64,000 bases of DNA, taken from the NCBI GenBank assembly GCA_016176465.1, contig JACOXD010000004.1, forward strand, positions 50,119 to 114,118. The letters are read 5' to 3'. The notes beneath the pieces are model-generated. The model saw only the letters and a program-made list of their open reading frames with translations, searched no databases and was not told the origin of the DNA. This document shows, in pieces, positions 4,937 through 24,592 of the stretch. Each line of letters starts with the position of its first letter. The first letter of the stretch is position 1. A program made the position numbers and the translations under genes. The DNA is from Candidatus Daviesbacteria bacterium. GTDB taxonomy: Bacteria > Patescibacteriota > Microgenomatia > Daviesbacterales > UBA10151.

Positions 4937-5569
4937 CTATTTTAATTTTGCCAATACTACCAACCTTTTAGTATTAAATCCAGGCGGTACGCAAGTCATT
5001 AAAGTTAGGTATCTGCCTACTTTGTCTGGTGGATTAATCACAGAAATATCTTTAGGATCAACAATTTTTATTTGCAAAGTAACGTATTCAAACTTTTGTC
5101 CTGAAACATAAAGTTCAATATTATCACCAATCTTTAACTCAGGTAATTTGGCAAAAATTGCCTGGAAATTTCCAGGCTTATATAGCTGGACTAGTGATGA
5201 ATGACCGGTGATAAAAATATTACCCTTTTCTCCGGGAAGAGCAGAACCAGGCAAATGGGCCAAATTTTCCTCAAAACTATTAGTATCTACTTTAACTAAA
5301 ATATCTTTTAAATTGATTTTATTAATGGTTAAAAAAAATCGATCATAAGTATAACTTCTCTCTTTACTGTCGGAGATAAAGGCCGGAAAATTGCCTATAT
5401 TTTGAATACTTACTCCTGCAACTTCTCCTTTTTGGGGATCGATTAAAGCTTTACTTTGCCAATAGTTACTAAATTCCCAAAACTTAAATGCAATAAGCGG
5501 CATAATTATTTGAACTAAAATAAAAATCCCAATGCTTAGGCAGATTAGCGAAAATATTTTAATAACCAT
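4937..5569 (-). CDS. Sortase family transpeptidase
   Basis: N-terminal TM, ITGHS (His) and LTLMTCVP (TLxTC Cys) motifs. Confidence 0.7.
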   Translation of the reverse strand: MVIKIFSLICLSIGIFILVQIIMPLIAFKFWEFSNYWQSKALIDPQKGEVAGVSIQNIGNFPAFISDSKERSYTYDRFFLTINKINLKDILVKVDTNSFEENLAHLPGSALPGEKGNIFITGHSSLVQLYKPGNFQAIFAKLPELKIGDNIELYVSGQKFEYVTLQIKIVDPKDISVINPPDKVGRYLTLMTCVPPGFNTKRLVVLAKLK

Positions 5570-8016: not shown

Positions 8017-9915
8017 GTGAAATCATCTGATATTAGAAAAAAATATTTAGAATTTTTCCAAAAAAGAGGACATAAAATAATTCCCTCCTCTTCTTTAGTG
8101 CCGGAAAATGACCCGACTACTTTATTTACTGGTTCTGGAATGCAGCCGATGATTCCTTATCTTTTAGGAGAACCTCATCCAGAGGGAAAAAGAATAGTTG
8201 ATTCCCAAGTGGCTTTTAGATCCCAAGATATTGAAGAAGTAGGTGATAATCGTCATGACACTTTATTTGAGATGCTGGGTAATTGGAGCTTGGGAGACTA
8301 TTTCAAAAAAGAGCAACTAAGTTGGTATTTCGAATTTTTAACCAAGGAGTTAAACCTTGATCCAAGTAAAATTTACGTTAGTGTTTTTATTGGAGATGAA
8401 AAAAATAAACTTCCTAAAGATATTGAGTCAGCAAAGATCTGGAAGGAGCTTTTTTCCAAAAAAGGAATTGAAGCTAAAGATTTTGAATTTGGTTCAATGG
8501 AGGATGCTGCAAAAATGGGGATGAAAGATGTCAGAATTTTTTATTATGATGCTTTAAAAAATTGGTGGTCCAGAGTTGGTGAACCGGAAAACATGCCTGC
8601 TGGAGAACCGGGTGGTCCGGATTCTGAAGTATTTTATGATTTTGGTTTAGAGCATGATCCAAAGTATGGTAAATATTGCCATCCTAATTGTGACTGCTCT
8701 AGGTTTGTAGAAATTGGTAATTCGGTTTTTATGCAATATATCAAACAATCGGATGGAAGTTTTAAAGAATTACCTCATAAAAATGTTGACTTTGGAGGAG
8801 GATTGGAGCGAACTTTAATGGCTGTTAATAATGAACCAGATATGTTCAAAAACGATCTCCATTTTCCAATAATTGAAAAACTTATTAAAGATACAGGTAA
8901 TGAATATGGAAAAGATGCAAAAGCTACCTCAGCTTTTAGGATTGTTGCTGATCACTTAAAAGCGGCTACATTTTTAATAAAAAATGGCGTCACTCCATCT
9001 AACAAACAACAAGGCTATGTCTTAAGAAGATTGCTTCGAAGATCCGCTGTTAAATTATCTGATTATGACTTGGATTTTGTAGATACTTTGGCCAATCTTT
9101 CTGGAGTAGTTATTGATATCTATCAGGGGACTGATTATTTTGGCAAAGACGATAATGAAAATATTAAAAAAGTGATTATTGATGAGTTAGAAAAGTTTGA
9201 AAAAACAATCAAACATGGACTAAAAGAAATAGAGAAAATAGAGAAAATTACTGGCAAAGTTGCCTTTTACTTTTATCAGACTTTTGGTTTTCCCTTAGAG
9301 ATAACTGCAGAGGTAGCTAAAGAAAAAGGACAGGAAATTAATTTTAAAGAATTTGAAGAAGAGTATAAATTACATCAAGAATTATCTAGAACAACCTCAG
9401 CTGGTACTTTTAAAGGAGGTTTGGCAGATGCTAAAGAACAAACTACTAAACTCCATACCGCTAATCACTTAATGCAAGCTGCACTAAGACAAATTTTAGG
9501 AGAGCATGTTAGACAACACGGATCAAATATAACAGCCGAGAGACTAAGATATGATTTTTCTCATGATCAAAAATTAAGTGATGCGGAAATCAAAAAAGTT
9601 GAAAATTTAGTAAATGAACAAATCAAGAAAGATTTAAAAGTATGGTTTGATATTGAAGATAGAGACCAGGCAATTAAAGATGGCGCTTTAACGAATGTTG
9701 GCGAGAGCTATCCTGATAAGGCCAAAGTTTATAAAATTGGCACCCTGCCCAGTCATCCCGATGAGTCCACGATATCGGAATCTCTCTTCTCTAAAGAGCT
9801 CTGTGGCGGGCCACATGTGGAACATACAGGTGTAATTGGAAAATTTAAAATTCTAAAACAAGAGTCTTTAGGTGCAGGTTTAAAAAGAATTTATGCTACA
9901 ATTGACAAAATATAA
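8017..9915 (+). CDS. alaS: Alanyl-tRNA synthetase, short form lacking the C-Ala domain (GTG start)
   Basis: Class II AlaRS N-terminus; editing-domain HTANHLMQAAL (HxxxH) and CGGPHV; 632 aa. Confidence 0.9.
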   Translation: MKSSDIRKKYLEFFQKRGHKIIPSSSLVPENDPTTLFTGSGMQPMIPYLLGEPHPEGKRIVDSQVAFRSQDIEEVGDNRHDTLFEMLGNWSLGDYFKKEQLSWYFEFLTKELNLDPSKIYVSVFIGDEKNKLPKDIESAKIWKELFSKKGIEAKDFEFGSMEDAAKMGMKDVRIFYYDALKNWWSRVGEPENMPAGEPGGPDSEVFYDFGLEHDPKYGKYCHPNCDCSRFVEIGNSVFMQYIKQSDGSFKELPHKNVDFGGGLERTLMAVNNEPDMFKNDLHFPIIEKLIKDTGNEYGKDAKATSAFRIVADHLKAATFLIKNGVTPSNKQQGYVLRRLLRRSAVKLSDYDLDFVDTLANLSGVVIDIYQGTDYFGKDDNENIKKVIIDELEKFEKTIKHGLKEIEKIEKITGKVAFYFYQTFGFPLEITAEVAKEKGQEINFKEFEEEYKLHQELSRTTSAGTFKGGLADAKEQTTKLHTANHLMQAALRQILGEHVRQHGSNITAERLRYDFSHDQKLSDAEIKKVENLVNEQIKKDLKVWFDIEDRDQAIKDGALTNVGESYPDKAKVYKIGTLPSHPDESTISESLFSKELCGGPHVEHTGVIGKFKILKQESLGAGLKRIYATIDKI

Positions 9916-9937
9916 TACAATGATACAATAGTATTGT

Positions 9938-10189
9938 ATGAGTAATTATGTTACAACCAATATCAGACTTCCAGAAGAGGACTACTTAAGGCTTAAAGAA
10001 GAAGCTGCTAAAAATAGAAAAAGCCTATCAGCTGTTATTAGAGAGAAAATTAGTGGAAAAAAGCCAATTAAGGATTTTGCTAAGATGCTTTTAGAGTTAA
10101 ACACTGATTGGTTTACCGAAGAAGATTTTAAGACGTATAAGAAAAGCAGAAGGCAACTTAAGAAAAGAGTAAAATTATACGATTGGTAA
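9938..10189 (+). CDS. vapB: Ribbon-helix-helix (CopG/VapB-like) antitoxin
   Basis: N-terminal RHH TTNIRLPEEDYLRLKEEAAKNRKSLSAVIREKI; abuts the downstream PIN gene. Confidence 0.6.
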   Translation: MSNYVTTNIRLPEEDYLRLKEEAAKNRKSLSAVIREKISGKKPIKDFAKMLLELNTDWFTEEDFKTYKKSRRQLKKRVKLYDW

Positions 10190-15281: not shown

Positions 15282-15791
15282 CTATTTAGGCAAAGCAGTG
15301 ACAATTAATCTTTTTTGATCAAAACTGCCATCACAAGTATATAAAGTTAACTGATTTTTATCAGAAACCACCGCATCCACATCAGTTGGCAATACTTGGT
15401 GTTTTTTAGAAACTACATAAGTATAAGTTTTTTGATCATGTTCCACAATTATCTCATCCCCTATTTCAATATTTTTTAAAGGTCCAAATAAGTTTTCTTT
15501 ATTATGGGCATATAAAATTACATTTCCTTTTTCTGGAGTAGCGGAGGTAGCAAGCCAAGAAACCTTATCATCATAAAGCGTCCATTCATCATTAGAAATT
15601 ACCCCTTGGGCAATTGGTAAAGTTAAATCAAACGGTTTAAAATAAATCGCGCTCGGGGAAGTTTTTATTTGATATTGAGGATCTTCTTTTGGAAGTGGGC
15701 TGACTATTTCCTCGGCCCTAACGCTTTGCGGAGAAAATATTCTATCAGGATATAAACGGGCGACTATCAGCGAGACTATCGCTGCAGTCAT
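15282..15791 (-). CDS. Sortase family transpeptidase
   Basis: N-terminal TM, LYAHN (His) and LTLYTCDGS (TLxTC) motifs. Confidence 0.7.
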   Translation of the reverse strand: MTAAIVSLIVARLYPDRIFSPQSVRAEEIVSPLPKEDPQYQIKTSPSAIYFKPFDLTLPIAQGVISNDEWTLYDDKVSWLATSATPEKGNVILYAHNKENLFGPLKNIEIGDEIIVEHDQKTYTYVVSKKHQVLPTDVDAVVSDKNQLTLYTCDGSFDQKRLIVTALPK

Positions 15792-15819
15792 TAAAATAAA
15801 GAAGCCTTGTAAGAAAATC

Positions 15820-16227
15820 TCACTCTTCAGTTTTGCTCCTTACTATTTTTAAACCTAGCAAAATAGCTATGATCAAAACACCAAAGACTAGAATCCATTT
15901 AACAACTTCTATTTGGGCACCAGTTGCACCTAAAACTTTAGTAGCGCCTAAAACTTCTGGTTTAGCAGAGGCTGATGGGGATGGTGAAGGAGATGGAGAA
16001 GCTGCTGGATTAGCTGAAGGAGAGGGCGAAGCGCTGGGATCAGGGGTAGGTGTTGCAGATGGGGATGGAGAAACACTACCTTGAACAGGTGAGGGAGAAG
16101 GACTAGCTGAAGGAGATGCATCCTGAGCTAAAACTAAACAAGGAAAGTTTAAGTAAAAAACAGTGACAATAGCAAAAATAAATAAGCTGATAAAAGTTTG
16201 GGAGCTAAGTAGTAGTTTCTTGGGCAT
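15820..16227 (-). CDS. Ser/Pro-rich secreted protein with a C-terminal sorting-signal-like region (candidate sortase substrate)
   Basis: Signal peptide, SPSPSA repeats, then VLGATKVLGATG, hydrophobic helix and a KIVRSKTEE tail; lies adjacent to a sortase. Confidence 0.45.
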   Translation of the reverse strand: MPKKLLLSSQTFISLFIFAIVTVFYLNFPCLVLAQDASPSASPSPSPVQGSVSPSPSATPTPDPSASPSPSANPAASPSPSPSPSASAKPEVLGATKVLGATGAQIEVVKWILVFGVLIIAILLGLKIVRSKTEE

Positions 16228-16285
16228 AAAAACTACCTTCTATTTTACCATAACCTAAAAATTGCTTGATTGCAAGCAAGGAGTT

Positions 16286-17587
16286 TTAAGCAGCGGGAGC
16301 CAGGGTAAAACCTAAATCACCCTCTACAGCTAATTTACCCTTAGGTGTATAAGCCCTTGCTTTTCCTGTACCACTTGCACTACCCCCTCTATCCTCTTGT
16401 AAATTAACCCCTTCTACTTCAATTCTTGCCTCATCTCCATACTGAAGCATTCTAAGAAATCTAACGCGAATTAACTCTGTAAGTAAAGCAACCCTTCCTT
16501 TATACTCTGGTTTTGATAAGATCACCATTGCACCAAATTGATTCATAGCTTCTTCTGTTATTACTCCTGGAATTACTGGGAATCCTGGGAAATGTCCTCC
16601 TCTCCAGTTTATATCAGGATGAATAAGATTTACCATGTGGCCTGAGGCTCTTTCTCCAGGAACTAACTCTAAAACTCCTCCTATAAAGTTAATTGGCCAG
16701 CGATGAGGAATAATATCCTCTACCTGTTCCCTGGTCATTATAGAATCTGCTCTCATTGGAGGAGGTCCAACTAATTCTCCATAACCCTCGGGAAGATGTT
16801 CCCTATATCTAGGTCTAACTCCAACATATTCTGTATGACCATTTGGGTAAGGCTTTGTTACAACTTTAACTATACTATTAGCATAATCTTGGGCCGAAGG
16901 TGTATGTCCAAACTCACCTATAGAGTCCCAATATGCAATCTTTGACTCTTCCGGCCTTCTTCTAGACCAATTATCTGTAACAAATGTTTGATCTAGCGCA
17001 TTCCCCACGACTTCTATGTATTTGAATCTTTCAAATTCTCCTCCTGCAGTAAATGCAAGCCGGAATTGGGTAGATGCAAATCTTTTACCCTCTCTTACAT
17101 TTATATATATATCGGGCACATAAAGCATTGCTTCAGGGTGATCAGTGTGTGCTTGAATACTTTGATTAAAAACAACAGGAGCTCCATCAGGCATCATGGG
17201 AGCTAATGCTCTTAAAAGTGCTAAGTTCCGACCATAATTAAATGCAATAGACTCTTCTAAGGTCCCTCGCAAACCTGCCCCTGTGTTCATAACTAAAGCA
17301 CCTACTACTCCACCTAATAAATGAGCTTTTTCTACATATTGATCAATAGTTTCATCTCTATTAAGATCCCCTTCAACATAAAACATATCCCTTCCAAGAG
17401 CTCTTACCCCATTTACTATTAATTCCTGATCTGAGCGGTGTTTATCGCTCCTAAAACCTCCTAGAACATTCCACTCTGCAACGGCAAAAGCCAAGGCAGT
17501 ATACTTACCTACATCTCTAGAAGTTCCAGTAATGGCAACAAGGGGTCTTCTTTTTTCTCCGGATTCTAATGCTGCGGGACCTGCCAT
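16286..17587 (-). CDS. Fusion of an SDR-type reductase (FabI-like Y-x6-K; putative enoyl reductase) and a FabZ-like hotdog 3-hydroxyacyl-ACP dehydratase
   Basis: N-terminal VAITGTSRDVGK Rossmann, LVMNTGAG (NNAG-like), YINVREGK (Y-x6-K); C-terminal HRWPINFIGGVLEL...WRGGHFPGFPVIPGVITEEAMNQ is the FabZ signature. Confidence 0.6.
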   Translation of the reverse strand: MAGPAALESGEKRRPLVAITGTSRDVGKYTALAFAVAEWNVLGGFRSDKHRSDQELIVNGVRALGRDMFYVEGDLNRDETIDQYVEKAHLLGGVVGALVMNTGAGLRGTLEESIAFNYGRNLALLRALAPMMPDGAPVVFNQSIQAHTDHPEAMLYVPDIYINVREGKRFASTQFRLAFTAGGEFERFKYIEVVGNALDQTFVTDNWSRRRPEESKIAYWDSIGEFGHTPSAQDYANSIVKVVTKPYPNGHTEYVGVRPRYREHLPEGYGELVGPPPMRADSIMTREQVEDIIPHRWPINFIGGVLELVPGERASGHMVNLIHPDINWRGGHFPGFPVIPGVITEEAMNQFGAMVILSKPEYKGRVALLTELIRVRFLRMLQYGDEARIEVEGVNLQEDRGGSASGTGKARAYTPKGKLAVEGDLGFTLAPAA

Positions 17588-17591
17588 AAAT

Positions 17592-18527
17592 TTATCCTAA
17601 TCTCAAATGAGTTACGCCTGCTTCTACTTCTAAAATTTGTCCTGTCACAGGTAGTGCGAGATCACTAATAAGATAAAGTACTGTGTGAGCTGCTTCTTCA
17701 GGGGTAATAAATCTTTGACCACCAAGAAGGGGCATTTTTTGTGCGATAGGTAATAGAGGGTCAACCCCCAGCTTTTTTTGCTCATCTGTTTGTTGTCGAC
17801 GATAAGCAAATTCCGCAGTTCTCCAAATTTTGGTCCTAATCGGGCCAAGAGCAGCTGAGTTAACAGCTACTCCATCTTGAGCAAATTCAATCGCCCAAGC
17901 CTTAGTGAGCCCATCAATGCCTGCTTTAGTTGCAACATAAGCTGATTGATAAGCGTTGCCATGACGTCTACTTATGCTTGTTATATTAGCAATTCGCCTT
18001 CTACCCCTAGGCGCTTTTCTTATATCTTCAATTACTCCCAATGTAGTATTAAAAGTTCCGATAAGATTAACCTCTACAACTCCCCTAAAGGTAATCATCA
18101 TCTTTTCTCTTGCTCTATCAGTTTCCCCACTAAATGGTCTATCTGCAGTTATTCCTGCGTTATTAACTAGAGTATCTAGCCCTCCAAATAAATCTCTTCC
18201 CACTCTGGCAATCGCCACTCCTGTTTCCGGCAATTGAATCTCTCCGGTTACTACCTCCACTCCTACTCCAAAACTATTAAGAGTATGAGCCAGTTCTTCT
18301 AATTGAACTTTTCTTTCTGGTTTTCCATTTAAAACTAAACTTGCTCCCGCAATTGCAAATCTTTCAGCAATAGCTTTACCTACTCCTGCATTTGCTCCTG
18401 TAATAGCTACAGTTCTTCCTGTTAAACTTAGTCCTGAGGTTCTTTCACCTTCTACAGTTCTATGGGGACCTAAGTGTCTTCGGAGAATTTGTCTTCTTGT
18501 TTCTGGTGCTTCTGAAGGTGCTGGCAT
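17592..18527 (-). CDS. 3-oxoacyl-ACP reductase-like SDR ketoreductase (FabG-like)
   Basis: TGANAGVGKAIA, NNAG, catalytic S...YVATK (Y-x3-K). Confidence 0.75.
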   Translation of the reverse strand: MPAPSEAPETRRQILRRHLGPHRTVEGERTSGLSLTGRTVAITGANAGVGKAIAERFAIAGASLVLNGKPERKVQLEELAHTLNSFGVGVEVVTGEIQLPETGVAIARVGRDLFGGLDTLVNNAGITADRPFSGETDRAREKMMITFRGVVEVNLIGTFNTTLGVIEDIRKAPRGRRRIANITSISRRHGNAYQSAYVATKAGIDGLTKAWAIEFAQDGVAVNSAALGPIRTKIWRTAEFAYRRQQTDEQKKLGVDPLLPIAQKMPLLGGQRFITPEEAAHTVLYLISDLALPVTGQILEVEAGVTHLRLG

Positions 18528-18734
18528 ATTTTTTTTAATTAAGCGCTAAACTAACATAGCAAAATATAATTTGCAATATAGTATTTACTAAAAGATCAAT
18601 CTGTAACTTTGGAAACAAAATTTTGGTTATTTTAATTACAAATTTTTAGTAACTAAAACTACAGAAAGTTAATTTTTAAAAGAATATATTGACAACTATT
18701 AACTAAAATTATAGGATCAATTTCATAATTAAAC

Positions 18735-20084
18735 ATGGAAAGATCTGGAGATATTGCTGTAACTGGAATGGGTCTTGTTTCTCCCTTAGGACCTGATAAA
18801 GAAAGTTCCTTTGAAGCCATGCTCAGAGGAGAATCCGGTATAGCATTACTTGAACCACAAAGAAAGTATAAAGGTCTTGGCACTCGAATTGGTGGACAAC
18901 TAAAAGGCTTTCGACCGGAGGATCACTTTAGCGCATTTGCCCGTTTACAAACTCACCGCTCAACCCAAATGGCAGAGGTAGTAGTAAGACAAGCTATAAA
19001 AGATGCAGGTTTTGAAATAGGAAAGAGAGGAGTTTTTGCTCCTGATCGAAAAAAAAGTTTAATCTCAGGTACTAGCGTAGGAGGGATGGTTGGACTTCCT
19101 TCAGAAGAGTGGGTATTAGCAAGGGCTCATTATGAAGAATGGTCTAGGGCGGCCTCTATGAGTACTTTAAGAAGTCTTCCAGAAAGATCTGCAACTTATC
19201 CTGCAATGGAGCATGGGATCACGGGTCCTGTTAAACAAGAATCTGGAGCCTGTGCAACATTCGCCTTAGTATTATCCGAAGCAGAGTTTAGGCTTAATTA
19301 CCGTTATACGAGAAACGGTTTAGATGAAAATGACCCAGATGCCACAGATGCAGACTTAATAATAGTAGTTGGAACAGATGCGGGAATTTCCCCACTAATG
19401 ATTAGATCCTTTAATGTCTTGGGGGGTAAGGAGGGAGCGCTTTCCAGAAGGAACGATGATCCAGAAGGTGCTAGCAGACCCTATGATCAATATGCGGATG
19501 GATTTGTTCCTGCTGAAATGGCAGCAGCTCTTCTCTTAGAGCCTCGAGAACTGGCTGAAGCAAGAGGTGCACATATTTATGCTTTATATCTAGGTGGAGC
19601 TGATACTTGCGATGCTGATAGGGCTACAGCTGTGAATTCAAATAGACTAGCCGATACATATAGACTTACTTTAAGAAGAAGTGGAATTATAATTGCTAAA
19701 AGGATTGATATTGCTTTTAATGCCCATGCCACCTCAACCCTTCCCGGTGATAAAGGTGAAGCAACTGCAGTGAAAATAGCATTTGGAGATAAAGCCAAAG
19801 ACATTCCTATAAGTGCAATGAAAGGGTATTTTGGTCATGGTCTAGGTCCTTGCGCCGGAGGAGAGATAGTAATGGGATTAATGGCTATGGAGAAACAAAT
19901 CGTAATTGCTAATCGTAATTTACATAATCGCATCCCTGAAGCTGAAGGTTTATTTTTAGTAGAGCCTGAATTAGTAGATGGTGAACTTAGATACTATAGA
20001 CCTTGGAAATATGATGTTATGTTGAAAGCTTCTTCTGGATTTGGTGGAATAAATTCTGTTCATGCTTTTAGACTATATCAATAG
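18735..20084 (+). CDS. Beta-ketoacyl-ACP synthase (KAS I/II, FabF/FabB-like), divergent
   Basis: AVTGMGLVSPLG; Cys in ESGACATFA; His in NAHATSTLPGDKGE; Lys/His in AMKGYFGHGLGPCAG. Confidence 0.8.
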   Translation: MERSGDIAVTGMGLVSPLGPDKESSFEAMLRGESGIALLEPQRKYKGLGTRIGGQLKGFRPEDHFSAFARLQTHRSTQMAEVVVRQAIKDAGFEIGKRGVFAPDRKKSLISGTSVGGMVGLPSEEWVLARAHYEEWSRAASMSTLRSLPERSATYPAMEHGITGPVKQESGACATFALVLSEAEFRLNYRYTRNGLDENDPDATDADLIIVVGTDAGISPLMIRSFNVLGGKEGALSRRNDDPEGASRPYDQYADGFVPAEMAAALLLEPRELAEARGAHIYALYLGGADTCDADRATAVNSNRLADTYRLTLRRSGIIIAKRIDIAFNAHATSTLPGDKGEATAVKIAFGDKAKDIPISAMKGYFGHGLGPCAGGEIVMGLMAMEKQIVIANRNLHNRIPEAEGLFLVEPELVDGELRYYRPWKYDVMLKASSGFGGINSVHAFRLYQ

Positions 20085-20087
20085 TTT

Positions 20088-21410
20088 ATGCGAGAAAAAG
20101 ATCTAGACGAGAGAGTTGCTATTGTTGGAGTTGGAGCTGTAACTCCTGCTGGTAATTCTGCCCAGGCTACTTGGGAAGGATTTACTCACTCAAACCGCTC
20201 CTTTATTACAGCTATGTCTGTTGGTCGTGATAATTTCCATTCTATGCAACTTGCAGGCAAAGTTAAAGATTTTGATCCATATAAATACGCTGGTGGAAAA
20301 CAACTTAAAAGATCAGACCGCTATGCTCAATTTGCAGTTGCAGCCTCGGTTGAGGCAATGTTAGCTTCAGGCCGCTTAAGGATGGTTACAAAACCAAATA
20401 GAACAACTGCAGCAGTTTATGAATTAATCGATATTGATCCTTTTAGAATAGGTGTAGATATGGGTATAGCGGTTGGCGGATCTTCTGCAATTGACCAAGG
20501 GAGAGAAGACATAATGCTAAAAGGCCCGGATAGAATTAGTCCTAATACAATTTCTCTTTTAAATCCCTCAAAAGCTGCAAGCGATCCAGCCCTTATAATT
20601 GGCGCGCTAGGCGGAGCGATGACTCATAACAGCGCGTGTGTGAGCGGAGTCAGCGGAATTATAGAGCTTTATAAAAAAATAGTCAGAGGTGATTTGGACA
20701 TGGGAGTTGGAGGTGGAACTGAGTCCCCCCTACACCCACTAGCTTTCTATGCATTCCAAAAAATGGGAGTGTTGGTTTCATATGAGAAATTTAAAGATAG
20801 CCCGGAAGAAGCCGTAAAGTCACTTGATGTAGATGGGGAGGGATTTGCTATGGGTGAAGGGGTAGGAGTTTTAGCCTTAGAGAGATATAGTTTGGCGGTA
20901 AAAAGAAAGGCAAGAATTCTAGGGGAAATTGTAGGACCAGCTTATTTTTGTGATCCAAGGGATGTGTTAGATCCAACTGAAAAGAACGTTGAAATATTAG
21001 TAGAAATGATCCTTGAAAATTCTGGCTTAGAACCATACGAGGTTGATCATCATAACCTTCATGCAGGCGCATCAACGGGTGATGGCACAGAACTGCGAGG
21101 ATCAAGAAGAGTTTACAAATACCAAACTGAATATATAAGTTTTCATGGACCTAAATCAAGAATTGGTCACTTAATGGGCGGGGCTGGAGGTGCTGAAAGT
21201 GTAATTTTAGTTTATGCAGTAGCAACTGATACCGACCCGCCTACTGCCAATTTGAAGAATCCAAGAGAGGCAGGCTTTTATGTTCCCAGAAGAACAGGTA
21301 GAAGATTAATAAGGGCAGGGATAAAAACAGCTTTGGGTTTAGATGGGCAATATGGTGGGTTTGGAGTCGTCAAACCTGCCCCCAGATATCTTAATTACGC
21401 TGCTGCTTAA
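20088..21410 (+). CDS. Second beta-ketoacyl-ACP synthase (FabF-like, retains Cys-His-His; not a CLF)
   Basis: AIVGVGAVTPAGN; Cys in HNSACVSGV; His in NLHAGASTGDGTE; PKSRIGHLMGGAGGAE. Confidence 0.75.
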   Translation: MREKDLDERVAIVGVGAVTPAGNSAQATWEGFTHSNRSFITAMSVGRDNFHSMQLAGKVKDFDPYKYAGGKQLKRSDRYAQFAVAASVEAMLASGRLRMVTKPNRTTAAVYELIDIDPFRIGVDMGIAVGGSSAIDQGREDIMLKGPDRISPNTISLLNPSKAASDPALIIGALGGAMTHNSACVSGVSGIIELYKKIVRGDLDMGVGGGTESPLHPLAFYAFQKMGVLVSYEKFKDSPEEAVKSLDVDGEGFAMGEGVGVLALERYSLAVKRKARILGEIVGPAYFCDPRDVLDPTEKNVEILVEMILENSGLEPYEVDHHNLHAGASTGDGTELRGSRRVYKYQTEYISFHGPKSRIGHLMGGAGGAESVILVYAVATDTDPPTANLKNPREAGFYVPRRTGRRLIRAGIKTALGLDGQYGGFGVVKPAPRYLNYAAA

Positions 21411-21450
21411 TTTCTTTTGTTTATGAGACGCTCGCTCAGCTTACTCATTA

Positions 21451-22446
21451 CTAAGAGGTGACCGGCTCCCAGCTAGTAGCAATGTGTAATCCTAAGCTAG
21501 TTAATATTTTCTCTGCTCTACCCTCACCAATAATTTTTGGATTCATGTCTGTTAGAGTAGTTTTTGTTCCAAATTCAACAAATCTTTGGACTCCTTCTTG
21601 TCTTAATTTCAAAACAGCATCTTTCCAACGGACAGCTGAAGTTAGCTGTGCTTCTAGCTCTTGTCTAATTTGTTCTACGGTCTCTAAAACCCAGGCTTTA
21701 GTATTGCCTACTATACCTACTACAGGTGGTTTAATAGGGGAACTTTCCAAAGCAGGGAGCAATCTTTCCCGGGCTGGTTGCATATGACGGGTATGAAAAG
21801 GACCTGCTACTCCTTTTAATAAGAAACCCCTTATTCTCGCTGGCTCCAGTAAGGCCGGAAGCTGATCCAAACTCTTCTTTAGCCCTCCGACTACGAACTG
21901 CTCACCATTATTAACCGAAGCAACATCAACTCCTATAGGACTTACTAAATTGATTAGTTCTGCTTCATTTTCTTCACTTGTTTCCATCCTAACAACATAT
22001 AATCCTCCTGGATTTTGAATACAAGCTTCCTGCATTGCCTCACCACGAATTTGCACTAATCTCAAAGCCTCTTCAAAGCTTAAAGCACCTGCCGCAACTA
22101 AAGCAGTATAGAGCCCAAGGCTGTGTCCAGAAGTAGAAATTTCCCATTCACTGAAGTCTCCATTATTCTCGTCTTCGAAGAGCTCTCTACAAACCTCGCC
22201 ATAAGCTAAGAGTCCTGGCTGGGTTACTCTAGTCTCAGTTAAAACCTCAATTGGTCCTTTAAACATTAGCTCTGTTAAAAATTTTCCACCACTACCTGTT
22301 GAAAAAGGACCTAAAGTATCATTAGCAACATCTAGTGTTTTTTTAACTCCTGGATATGTGGAGTATAAATCTGCTGCCATCCCTACAAATTGGCTTCCTT
22401 GGCCTGGAAACACCCAGGCGACTTTAGGTTTTTGCTCTACGCTCAT
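21451..22446 (-). CDS. fabD: Malonyl-CoA:ACP transacylase (FabD-like acyltransferase)
   Basis: FPGQGSQ, GHSLG active-site Ser, GPFHT. Confidence 0.85.
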   Translation of the reverse strand: MSVEQKPKVAWVFPGQGSQFVGMAADLYSTYPGVKKTLDVANDTLGPFSTGSGGKFLTELMFKGPIEVLTETRVTQPGLLAYGEVCRELFEDENNGDFSEWEISTSGHSLGLYTALVAAGALSFEEALRLVQIRGEAMQEACIQNPGGLYVVRMETSEENEAELINLVSPIGVDVASVNNGEQFVVGGLKKSLDQLPALLEPARIRGFLLKGVAGPFHTRHMQPARERLLPALESSPIKPPVVGIVGNTKAWVLETVEQIRQELEAQLTSAVRWKDAVLKLRQEGVQRFVEFGTKTTLTDMNPKIIGEGRAEKILTSLGLHIATSWEPVTS

Positions 22447-22486
22447 ATTAGGAGAAATACTATCATAAGCTTAGAGTAATTTTCTA

Positions 22487-24592
22487 CTAAGTAGAAGAAG
22501 AACCTGAGGACTGGGTGGCAAAATATTCTTCTGCATTTCTGACTAATACATCTCTAGGTTTAGCACCCTCACCTGGTCCTATAATTCCTGCTGCTTCTAA
22601 CTCATCTATAATCCTAGCTGCTCTGGCATAACCTACCCTTAGTCTCCTTTGCAAAAGTGAAGCTGAAGCCCGGTCATACTGGCAAACTGTTCTAACTGCT
22701 TCCTCAAATAAGTCATCTCTCTCATTTACTCCCGCTATCCCATTTCTACCCCATCTACCAAGTGGCATCTCAGTTACCTCAGTGGTGTATTGTGGCTCAA
22801 TTCCAATGGATTTTAGATACTTAATTAAATTATTAGTCTCTTGATCTGTAAGTAGCACTCCTTGAATCCTAATAGGCTTACTAGCATCAGGTGGTAAAAA
22901 TAACATATCTCCTCTTCCTAATAATTTTTCTGCCCCCGGACCATCCAAAATTACTCTGGAATCCACCATGGATGAGACATTAAAAGCAATACGACATGGG
23001 ATGTTAGCTTTGATTAAACCAGTTATAACATCAACAGAAGGTCTCTGAGTGGCTACTACTAAATGAAGTCCAGTAGCCCGAGCTAACTGGGCAATCCGGG
23101 TGATAGCATCCTCAACTTCAACAGGAGCAAACATCATTAAATCAGCTAACTCATCAACAATAATTACAATATTAGGAAGTGCTTGGAATCCTGACATCTC
23201 GTTATAGCCTGTAATATTTCTTACCCCCACAGATTGGAAAAGTTTATACCTTCTATCCATCTCCGCCATGGACCACTTTAGTGCAGATAAAATTTTCTCA
23301 GGCTCAGTAATAACCGGAGTTAAAAGGTGGGGGATTCCGTTATAATTTGTTAACTCCACCCTTTTTGGATCTATTAAAATTAATTTAAGCTCATCGGGTG
23401 AGTTTCTATATAAAAGCGTTGCAATAATAGCGTTAATTAAAACTGATTTTCCAGAGCCAGTGGTTCCGGCAATCAAACAGTGCGGCATCCGGTCTATATC
23501 TACAACCAAAGGACTGGAGGCTGTATCCCTACCTAATGCAATAGCTAGCTTTGATTTATGTTTACTCATCTCATCTGATGCTAAAATAGCTTTTAAACCC
23601 ACAATTTCTAAAGAGTGATTTGGTACCTCAATCCCAACTAAAGATTTTCCCGGAATAGGAGCTTCAATTCTGACAGTTCCTGTTCTGGTGGCTAGCGCCA
23701 GTGCGATATCATGTTGTAAGTTAGCAATCTTGGCAATTTTAGTTCCTGATGCAATCTCTAATGCATATTGAGTAACAGCAGGTCCGCCGTTAACTTCAGC
23801 CACTCTTGCTTGAATTCCAAAAGAATCTAAGGTTTTTTCAATAATTGATGCACTTTTTTTAATATCCCCCCGCTCAGCGGACGCTCCTACCCTATCAGAG
23901 AGAAGTGAAAGGGGTGGATACTTCCAAACAGTATTAGATCCTGCTACATTAGCAACTAATTGATCAGAAATTATCCCCTCTTTTGCGGCTGCTTTAGGCT
24001 TTTGCCTCTCATCCATTCCAGAGACTTTAATAGCCACATGTTTAATCGGCATCACATCAGAGTGATTAAATAACCTATTCACTCCTCTAAATAACTTACC
24101 AAAAATTTTGACACTTCCTTGTAAAATATGTCCGAGCGAAGACAGAGAGGTATTAAAAAGTACTACCAATCCCACTAAAAATACTCCTAGTAGTACAACT
24201 GCGCTTCCAACAGGAGTTAATAATTTAGCTGAGTTTACCCAAATCTCAACACCTAAATTTCCTGCAAAGGTAGCGCTAAAGATTGCTGTTAAACCTAAAA
24301 GAGCAACTAAAGATGTAACAAATCCCAAAAAAACATTTAACTGAGCCACTCTCCAGCGAAGTTTTTGTAAAGTTAAACCAGATAAAATAAAAAAAATAGC
24401 GGCAAAATAAGCGCCCCAGCCAAAGTTAGTAAGTAAAAAATTCCTCCAAAAACTTAGCGTCTGCGTTTCTGTAAACATTGAAACAAGAGATAGTCCACCC
24501 AGGATAAAAGAGACAATAGAAGCTATTGTAATTACTGTTCTCTGACGCAGTTTAAGTCTTGGTATAGAATAAATTGATCTTCGGCGGGGCAT
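22487..24592 (-). CDS. ftsK: DNA translocase FtsK
   Basis: 4 N-terminal TMs, Walker A AGTTGSGKSV, Walker B IVDELADLMM, C-terminal winged-helix gamma domain. Confidence 0.9.
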   Translation of the reverse strand: MPRRRSIYSIPRLKLRQRTVITIASIVSFILGGLSLVSMFTETQTLSFWRNFLLTNFGWGAYFAAIFFILSGLTLQKLRWRVAQLNVFLGFVTSLVALLGLTAIFSATFAGNLGVEIWVNSAKLLTPVGSAVVLLGVFLVGLVVLFNTSLSSLGHILQGSVKIFGKLFRGVNRLFNHSDVMPIKHVAIKVSGMDERQKPKAAAKEGIISDQLVANVAGSNTVWKYPPLSLLSDRVGASAERGDIKKSASIIEKTLDSFGIQARVAEVNGGPAVTQYALEIASGTKIAKIANLQHDIALALATRTGTVRIEAPIPGKSLVGIEVPNHSLEIVGLKAILASDEMSKHKSKLAIALGRDTASSPLVVDIDRMPHCLIAGTTGSGKSVLINAIIATLLYRNSPDELKLILIDPKRVELTNYNGIPHLLTPVITEPEKILSALKWSMAEMDRRYKLFQSVGVRNITGYNEMSGFQALPNIVIIVDELADLMMFAPVEVEDAITRIAQLARATGLHLVVATQRPSVDVITGLIKANIPCRIAFNVSSMVDSRVILDGPGAEKLLGRGDMLFLPPDASKPIRIQGVLLTDQETNNLIKYLKSIGIEPQYTTEVTEMPLGRWGRNGIAGVNERDDLFEEAVRTVCQYDRASASLLQRRLRVGYARAARIIDELEAAGIIGPGEGAKPRDVLVRNAEEYFATQSSGSSST

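Follow-up and report, generated by a model that had tools for sequence, protein, structure and literature searches.

An SDR-FabZ gene fusion in a fatty-acid gene cluster of Candidatus Daviesbacteria, a candidate bifunctional dehydratase/enoyl reductase

The window analysed here, a 64,000-nucleotide stretch of contig JACOXD010000004.1 from a Candidatus Daviesbacteria bacterium, carries on its minus strand an open reading frame (ORF) that joins a short-chain dehydrogenase/reductase (SDR) domain to a FabZ-type hotdog dehydratase domain in a single protein. The fusion is real and under selection, since the identical ORF was recovered in independent assemblies and ten homologues share a conserved linker between the two domains. 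Regarding its function, the protein probably (at about 70% by our estimate) serves a compact type II fatty-acid synthase as a bifunctional dehydratase/enoyl reductase, in which the SDR half would act as a FabL-kind enoyl reductase. The gene is conserved but very rare. The features of the fusion gene are as follows:

16286..17587, minus strand: whole ORF of the SDR(FabL-like)-linker-FabZ fusion protein, 433 residues plus stop
16814..17548, minus strand: N-terminal SDR domain, residues 14-258, putative NADPH-dependent enoyl reductase of the FabL-like/PRK07806-like clade
17507..17530, minus strand: cofactor-binding motif TGTSRDVG, residues 20-27, with Arg24 invariant in the alignments
17450-17452, minus strand: Arg46, near-invariant in the alignments
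17237-17239, 17159-17161 and 17147-17149, minus strand: Asn117, Ser143 and His147, active-site residues beside Tyr161/Lys168
17084..17107, minus strand: active-site helix YINVREGK, Tyr161-x6-Lys168, aligned without gaps on Tyr151 and Lys158 of FabL
16739..16813, minus strand: conserved inter-domain linker of 25 residues, 259-283, with invariant Pro276, Met278 and Ser282
16289..16738, minus strand: C-terminal FabZ-type hotdog dehydratase domain, residues 284-433, from PF07977, NF000582, FabZ matches in the PDB and Foldseek
16550..16597, minus strand: catalytic dyad region, from GHFPG with His332 (16592-16594) through Glu346 (16550-16552)

Integrity and rarity of the fusion

The original prediction for this DNA described one polypeptide combining an SDR reductase with a FabZ dehydratase, and the Pfam and NCBIfam domain matches, together with the full-length homologues, bear this out. 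All the motifs on which it was based were found in the 433-residue translation, VAITGTSRDVGK at residues 17-28, LVMNTGAG at 98-105 and YINVREGK at 161-168 in the reductase half, and HRWP at 295-298 and GHFPGFPVIPGV at 331-342 in the hotdog half.

NCBI holds the exact 433-residue protein as 'SDR family NAD(P)-dependent oxidoreductase [Candidatus Daviesbacteria bacterium]', and the identical ORF was assembled without interruption in four separate SRA runs (L007-L010). The proposed search for homologous fusions returned ten other full-length two-domain proteins (416-443 residues, 34-43% identity, E 1e-90 to 2.5e-56), and both domains and the linker are colinear in the 11 full-length members, the window protein included. 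Stand-alone SDR relatives terminate within the linker region. One of these relatives, in L011, could favour the idea of a frameshift that has joined two adjacent genes, as its SDR ends inside the linker and a separate ORF that starts like a hotdog follows 4 nt further on. Against this, the four independent assemblies, the metagenome-assembled genome (MAG) at NCBI and the ten full-length fusions with invariant linker residues rule out a frameshift or assembly artefact, the outcome that the original prediction had named as fatal to it, and leave it a practically negligible probability.

The fusion is rare. In a search of 1.84 billion cluster representatives, the SDR domain alone matched 67 proteins at E <1e-3 and 6 at E <1e-10, and the close fusions number about a dozen, all of them singleton clusters. 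With the full-length alignment, a word-indexed profile search yielded no more than 12 proteins, the matches of an SDR-only profile were dominated by stand-alone PRK07806 proteins, and pattern scans of GTDB genomes and JGI metagenomes gave only five further loci. The close fusions come from Patescibacteria or Daviesbacteria MAGs and from groundwater-type metagenomes. One of them, L004 (CAZYPW010000011.1), lies in a MAG labelled 'uncultured Gammaproteobacteria'. It has Daviesbacteria-like genes beside the operon, and the operon adjoins a 566-residue protein that by eye is close to the 561-residue protein beside the Daviesbacteria copy in L006; the Gammaproteobacteria label is probably wrong. Moreover, there is a second, more distant group of SDR-hotdog fusions of 420-460 residues (P0022, P0025, P0034, P0042, P0055 and P0079). 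A literature search gave no paper dealing with PRK07806, with a FabL/FabI-FabZ fusion or with such an operon in the candidate phyla radiation (CPR).

The reductase and dehydratase halves

The N-terminal half matched Pfam adh_short at residues 17-156 (29.2 bits, cut-off 26.6 bits), and its best match in NCBIfam was the PRK07806 SDR family (NF005868), which covers residues 16-257, equivalent to profile positions 8-241 of 248. In the alignment of the 11 family members, T20, G21, S23, R24, D25, G27, G105, N117, S143, H147 and Y161 are invariant. The SDR-domain alignments were extended to the distant SDR-hotdog fusions and to true PRK07806 proteins, with 17 and then 76 sequences. In the 76-sequence alignment T20, G21, R24, G27, D74, G105, N117, S143 and Y161 are invariant, R46, N101, H147 and K168 are shared by 90% or more of the sequences, and the window protein is intact at T20, G21, R24, G27, D74, N101, G105, N117, S143, H147, Y161 and K168.

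The Y-x6-K spacing had been taken in the original prediction as the hallmark of a FabI-type enoyl reductase. The spacing itself is correct, as no register of the 11-, 17- or 76-sequence alignments gives a Y-x3-K in the SDR domain, but the FabI identity did not hold. The FabI signature tested was Tyr-Xn-Tyr-X6-Lys with an internal Met (Yx2Mx3K), and the window protein has Ser143 in place of the first Tyr and Val164 in place of the Met; in addition, PF13561 (adh_short_C2) scored only 13.6 bits against a 27-bit cut-off. The signature of FabL is Asn-Xn-Ser-Xn-Tyr-X6-Lys without the internal Met (PMC9260719), and it is matched by N117, S143, Y161 and K168, with V164 at the Met position, all conserved across the family.

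Profile searches gave the same picture. When the profile of the close family (A4) was run against the whole PDB, FabL came first (3oic/3oid, 71.6 bits, E 6e-19, residues 8-235), followed by a runner-up with 52.9 bits that covered the N-terminal half only, and the FabG structures were matched at the N-terminus only. The extended profile (A2) gave FabL 107.8 bits and the next structure, a 7-alpha-hydroxysteroid dehydrogenase (HSDH), 84.9 bits, with a gap needed for the Y-x3-K of the latter. By hhalign, A4 aligned to FabL with 98.7% probability over 208 columns (about 18% identity), placing Y161 and K168 on its Y151 and K158, and to the FabG of the window itself with 87% over the first 89 columns only, which are the cofactor-binding N-terminus. 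Furthermore, when true PRK07806 proteins are compared with NCBIfam, the FabL family comes second, with full-length matches of 92-104 bits. The original prediction would have failed if the N-terminal domain had scored as an SDR of another kind; no ketoreductase or epimerase score appeared, and FabL tops the PDB with an ungapped Y-x6-K. Consequently, an activity like that of the FabL kind of enoyl reductase, and not of the FabI kind, is supported by these alignments.

FabL of Bacillus subtilis has been described as a 'hybrid between FabI and FabG', a tetramer that is strictly NADPH-dependent (PMC9260719). The fused SDR shares with FabL (YgaA; PDB 3OIC/3OID; NF005975) the classical-type SDR fold, the Asn-Xn-Ser-Xn-Tyr-X6-Lys arrangement with Val instead of Met (YxxVxxxK) and an Arg after strand beta-2, as in the strictly NADPH-dependent enzyme, and FabL is its best solved relative over the full domain. 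Both Arg24 and Arg46 suggest the use of NADP(H), judging from the SDR coenzyme rules and from the strict NADPH use of FabL (PMC9260719). The differences are a loop between Ser and Tyr of 17 residues in the fusion family versus about 10-12 in FabL, the NAAGG/NTGAG glycine motif, a conserved C-terminal GHTEYVG motif and the FabZ domain fused on. With the PRK07806/NF005868 clade, an uncharacterised group with no assigned function from Actinobacteria, Chloroflexi, Deinococcus and others, the invariant motifs T-G-x-S-R-x-x-G, N-A-x-G-G, S-x-x-A-H and Y-x6-K are shared, whereas true members of the clade are stand-alone proteins of about 245 residues, in at least 2,830 clusters.

Concerning the C-terminal half, Pfam PF07977 (FabA-like hotdog) matched residues 294-403 with 28.8 bits, above its 23-bit gathering cut-off, and NCBIfam FabZ (NF000582) aligned to residues 287-410. 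The sequence matches of this half in the PDB are FabZ proteins, and the best Foldseek matches of the model are the FabZ enzymes of B. subtilis, C. jejuni, Y. pestis and E. coli (TM-score 0.77-0.88 on the target). His332 in GHFPG and Glu346 in EEAMNQ (ExxxQ) are invariant in the family and align to the catalytic His and Glu of FabZ. This His/Glu dyad assigns the hotdog half to the FabZ type; FabA has a His/Asp catalytic pair. The prediction of a FabZ hotdog in the C-terminal ~140 residues was therefore right, and so was that of a catalytic His within GHFPGFPVIPGV, which is His332. The His of HRWP, also proposed as catalytic, belongs instead to the conserved N-terminal PHRxPF motif of FabZ.

In all, the domain has in common with FabZ (E. 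coli, Y. pestis, H. pylori, B. subtilis) the single hotdog, PHRxPF, the catalytic His of GHFPGxPxxPGV and the Glu of ExxxQ, and differs from it in being the C-terminal partner of an SDR, attached through the conserved 25-residue linker, and in scoring below the equivalog cut-off. A basic RF(K/L)R segment of the family aligns to RFKR of Y. pestis FabZ. In H. pylori FabZ, conserved Arg and Lys residues near the tunnel entrance bind the acyl carrier protein (ACP) (PMC5143422), and the RF(K/L)R segment would occupy the place of these ACP-binding residues.

LpxC-FabZ (NF009667/PRK13188) is a bacterial precedent of a fusion of two enzymes with FabZ at the C-terminus. The window protein matches the FabZ part of NF009667, and P0014 and P0015 have the LpxC-FabZ architecture, in which the partner is the lipid A deacetylase LpxC and not the next enzyme of the elongation cycle. 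The dehydratase/enoyl reductase didomains of type I fatty-acid synthases (FAS) and polyketide synthases (PKS) and the peroxisomal MFE-2 likewise have a dehydratase or hydratase hotdog and a nucleotide-dependent reductase covalently joined, and both parts act on the same acyl chain. However, the type I enzymes have a double-hotdog dehydratase and an enoyl reductase that belongs to the medium-chain dehydrogenase/reductase (MDR) family or is a TIM barrel, and MFE-2 combines a 3-hydroxyacyl dehydrogenase of the SDR family with a MaoC-type hotdog. The window fusion combines an SDR-type putative enoyl reductase with a single FabZ hotdog, in the order reductase-dehydratase, and no MaoC match was found for it in Pfam or NCBIfam.

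Gene neighbourhood and related operons

The window comes from a low-GC CPR bacterium and has a housekeeping content, with genes for alanyl-tRNA synthetase, a Mur ligase, FtsK, RNase J, PNPase, IF-2 and NusA, and further for DnaK/DnaJ/GrpE, LepA, MurJ, UvrD, sortases and others. Around the fusion gene the following features were located:

17592..18527, minus strand: canonical FabG-like 3-oxoacyl reductase, 311 residues, Y-x3-K (NF004198, 144.6 bits)
18528..18734, no strand: AT-rich intergenic region from which the fabG-fusion operon and the ketoacyl synthase genes diverge, a candidate promoter region from sequence only
18735..20084, plus strand: KS1, FabF-like ketoacyl synthase (KS), with Cys173/His331/Lys363/His368
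20088..21410, plus strand: KS2, divergent second ketoacyl synthase, with the Cys-His-His triad and Lys kept
21451..22446, minus strand: FabD-like malonyl transacylase (PF00698, 84.3 bits)

The fusion is the second and last gene of a two-gene unit, separated by a gap of 4 nt from fabG upstream. This unit is divergent from KS1 and KS2, which are followed by FabD. The FabG of the window has an N-terminal extension of about 35 residues (MPAPSEAPETRRQILRRHLGPHRTVEGERTSGLSL...) that the FabGs of the related loci, with 249-266 residues, do not have. KS2 lies directly after KS1 and is 23% identical to it, and only one KS was found in the related loci examined. A role of KS2 as a chain-length factor was ruled out by its intact Cys-His-His catalytic triad.

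Positions 16001-24000 of the window have a GC content of 41%, versus about 33% in the flanks. The GC content at third codon positions is 0.20-0.28 in the five genes and 0.22-0.27 in the flanking genes, so that this GC 'island' shows no sign of a recent horizontal transfer, and that origin was rejected; the higher value reflects amino-acid composition. Immediately downstream of the fusion there is a gene for a 135-residue protein rich in Pro, Ser and Ala, which has a signal-like segment at its N-terminus and a hydrophobic anchor at its C-terminus. Two sortase genes are also present in the window, in the 15282-16227 region and at 4937-5569, both on the minus strand.

The fusion gene always comes directly after a FabG-like gene (L001, L002, L003, L004, L007 and L017; the FabG of L002 has only 111 residues as called). 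The gene orders of the related loci are as follows:

L001/L005 (Patescibacteria MAG CALRFD01): Crp-FabF-FabG-fusion
L004: Crp-FabF-FabG-fusion, then FabD
L002: Crp-FabF-FabG-fusion, then biotin ligase, a 187-residue protein and a 1090-residue fused biotin carboxylase-carboxyltransferase acetyl-CoA carboxylase (ACC)
L017: Crp-FabF-FabG-fusion-acyl-AMP ligase-FabD-biotin ligase-193-residue protein-ACC

The operons thus carry a condensing enzyme, a ketoreductase, a dehydratase, malonyl supply and a regulator, and FabD is present in three loci (the window, L004 and L017). In L017, a 504-residue AMP-binding acyl-activating enzyme is encoded between the fusion gene and FabD (8563-10077, plus strand), which hints at activated, possibly scavenged, fatty acids as primers. 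The protein of 187-193 residues encoded between the biotin ligase and the 1090-residue fused ACC (L002:6294-6857 and L017:11934-12515) is conserved and has no Pfam match. No match to a biotinyl domain was found in the fused biotin carboxylase-carboxyltransferase, and the C-terminus of the small protein is loosely like a biotinyl/lipoyl barrel, without the AMKM motif; it may be a divergent biotin carboxyl carrier protein. In CALRFD01, the gene directly after the fusion (L001:11327-12682, plus strand) resembles phosphonopyruvate/sulfopyruvate decarboxylases, with a TIGR03297 score of 142 bits, below the cut-off. Moreover, in Candidatus Daviesbacteria RIFCSPLOWO2_01_FULL_39_12 (L006:6647-8717) a KS gene is followed directly by a 241-residue SDR that stops inside the linker and has lost the segment with NAAGG, and neither FabG nor a FabZ domain is present there. 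This locus looks like a decayed copy of the operon, and L018 is probably another.

The window and the flanks retrieved for the six related loci that carry the family (L001/L005, L002, L003, L004, L006 and L017) gave no ACP, either with a regular expression for the DSL motif or by tblastn with the E. coli and B. subtilis ACPs, and none of the small ORFs of L001 and L017 read by eye was ACP-like. FabH was likewise not seen in the 64-kb window or in those loci. The presence of FabD argues that ACP is encoded elsewhere in the genome.

Regarding other enoyl reductases, a divergent 511-residue FabK/NMO-like gene adjoins the FabG-fusion pair in the Patescibacteria-like contig L003 (1507-3042, minus strand). 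Its product is 34% identical (E 1e-84) to a 489-residue NMO/FabK-like protein of a Chloroflexales locus (L013:6829-8298, plus strand), whose gene adjoins a stand-alone PRK07806 SDR and AccD/AccA and matches FabK (TIGR03151) only partially. An NMO/FabK-like gene beside a PRK07806-type SDR therefore recurs in two distant lineages. B. subtilis and E. faecalis each have a second enoyl reductase, and some of the genomes with the fusion may have one too. No FabK/NMO-like gene was found in the window, L001, L002, L004 or L017, where the fused SDR is the only enoyl-reductase candidate found in a search aimed at that kind of gene; FabI, FabV and MDR-type reductases were not specifically searched. The fusion would apparently supply the enoyl reductase that otherwise seems to be missing from the operons of these Patescibacteria and Daviesbacteria.

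Proposed function, alternatives and significance

In the proposed mechanism, the C-terminal FabZ domain would convert (3R)-hydroxyacyl thioesters into trans-2-enoyl thioesters, with His332 and Glu346 acting across the dimer interface, with ACP as the putative carrier. The N-terminal SDR would then saturate the enoyl chain, with NADPH as the probable reductant, in a site formed by Asn117, Ser143 and Tyr161-x6-Lys168, where Tyr161 would be the proton donor and Lys168 would position the cofactor. Together with the FabG of the gene 4 nt upstream and the products of the FabF-like KS genes, the fusion could complete the elongation cycle. The advantage of the fusion may be kinetic, either because a tethered reduction would pull the unfavourable dehydration forward or through substrate channelling, as the original prediction suggested. 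Furthermore, the lack of FabH and the acyl-AMP ligase of L017 suggest that activated, possibly scavenged, primers could be elongated.

Several results weigh against this assignment. The curated NCBIfam cut-offs are not reached by PRK07806 (NF005868, 87 bits against 162), by FabL (NF005975, 23 bits against 328 and only over the N-terminal 90 residues, or 60.8 bits in the best close relative, P0019) or by FabZ (NF000582, 63.8 bits against an equivalog cut-off of 113; TIGR01750, 56.9 bits against 155), and for this reason the SDR-FabZ fusion is best classed as a new subfamily and not as a member of the FabL, PRK07806 or FabZ equivalogs. Position 168 is Lys in nine of the 11 family members and His in the other two. 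Stand-alone PRK07806 genes occur mostly in contexts unrelated to fatty acids; one context is related (Chloroflexales, with SDR, NMO-like, AccD and AccA genes) and three are uninformative. The lack of ACP and FabH in the loci and the reductase candidate of L003 count on the same side. In addition, AlphaFold2 gave a pLDDT of 66 for the full-length protein and of 88.6 for the SDR domain alone, and Foldseek with the latter model returned dozens of PDB SDRs with similar TM-scores, in which FabL ranks 23 and many ketoreductases and alcohol dehydrogenases stand level with it; on such models, the fold comparison does not separate FabL from ketoreductases. This last result, the FabK/NMO-like neighbour in L003 with its homologue beside the Chloroflexales PRK07806 SDR, and the textbook order of MFE-2, with an N-terminal SDR and a C-terminal hotdog, would all fit an SDR that is a second ketoreductase or 3-hydroxyacyl dehydrogenase, in a ketoreductase-dehydratase didomain like MFE-2, with the true enoyl reductase, for example a FabK-like one, elsewhere. 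Such a didomain is nevertheless unlikely, given that Y-x6-K is conserved and Y-x3-K absent, that FabL leads any ketoreductase or HSDH by about 19-23 bits in the profiles and is alone in aligning across the catalytic helix, and that the hotdog is of the FabZ type and not of the MaoC/hydratase-2 type. A ketoreductase is, moreover, already provided by the canonical FabG, always immediately upstream, and the window and four of the other loci have no FabK-like gene.

The cluster could also belong to a specialised type II PKS-like or lipid-tailoring pathway, in the style of aryl polyenes, cispentacin or ladderanes, where the fusion would handle a special intermediate. The two adjacent KS genes of the window, the missing ACP and FabH, and weak matches to ApeI-like (13 bits), AmcE (27.9 bits) and AmcF (95 bits) families could be read in this way, but the scores of the specialised families are far under their cut-offs, the Cys-His-His triad and the Lys are intact in KS1 and KS2 alike, so that there is no chain-length-factor partner, and KS1 is closest to FabF. 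The other loci have a single KS, and some of them have FabD, ACC, biotin ligase and acyl-AMP ligase, a layout of primary metabolism, and the set of ketoreductase, dehydratase and enoyl reductase predicts fully saturated products; a specialised role is therefore rather improbable. It could be argued as well that the SDR is inactive and that its only role is to scaffold FabZ or to help it oligomerise, since all scores are under the family cut-offs and the window copy is the most divergent member of the family (NTGAG for NAAGG, NQS for NTS). With every cofactor-binding and catalytic residue conserved in the 76 relatives intact in the window protein, a dead domain seems very improbable, and the bifunctional dehydratase/enoyl reductase is the function that we favour.

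In general accounts, CPR/Patescibacteria lack fatty-acid biosynthesis and rely on host lipids (PMC12455944, PMC11608272). With 'SDR family oxidoreductase' as its only annotation, the fusion would escape pathway reconstructions that seek FabI, FabK, FabL or FabV. If the protein does work as a dehydratase/enoyl reductase, the whole elongation cycle is encoded within a single operon, such as that of L017, in a small number of Daviesbacteria-like genomes, and the lipid autonomy of CPR bacteria would become directly testable. It would also be a natural type II case of an enoyl reductase covalently coupled to the thermodynamically unfavourable dehydratase step, and it would open a first way to the function of PRK07806, a large clade of uncharacterised SDRs. 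A broader and more doubtful proposal is that PRK07806-type SDRs are an unrecognised class of enoyl reductases, which in CPR bacteria became fused to FabZ as a minimal, FabH-free elongation machine that extends scavenged acids activated by the acyl-AMP ligase, possibly without a conventional ACP. If these SDRs were enoyl reductases, some 'lipid-auxotrophic' Patescibacteria would have partial lipid autonomy, and the stand-alone PRK07806 proteins of Actinobacteria and Chloroflexi, which number in the thousands, would gain an assigned function.

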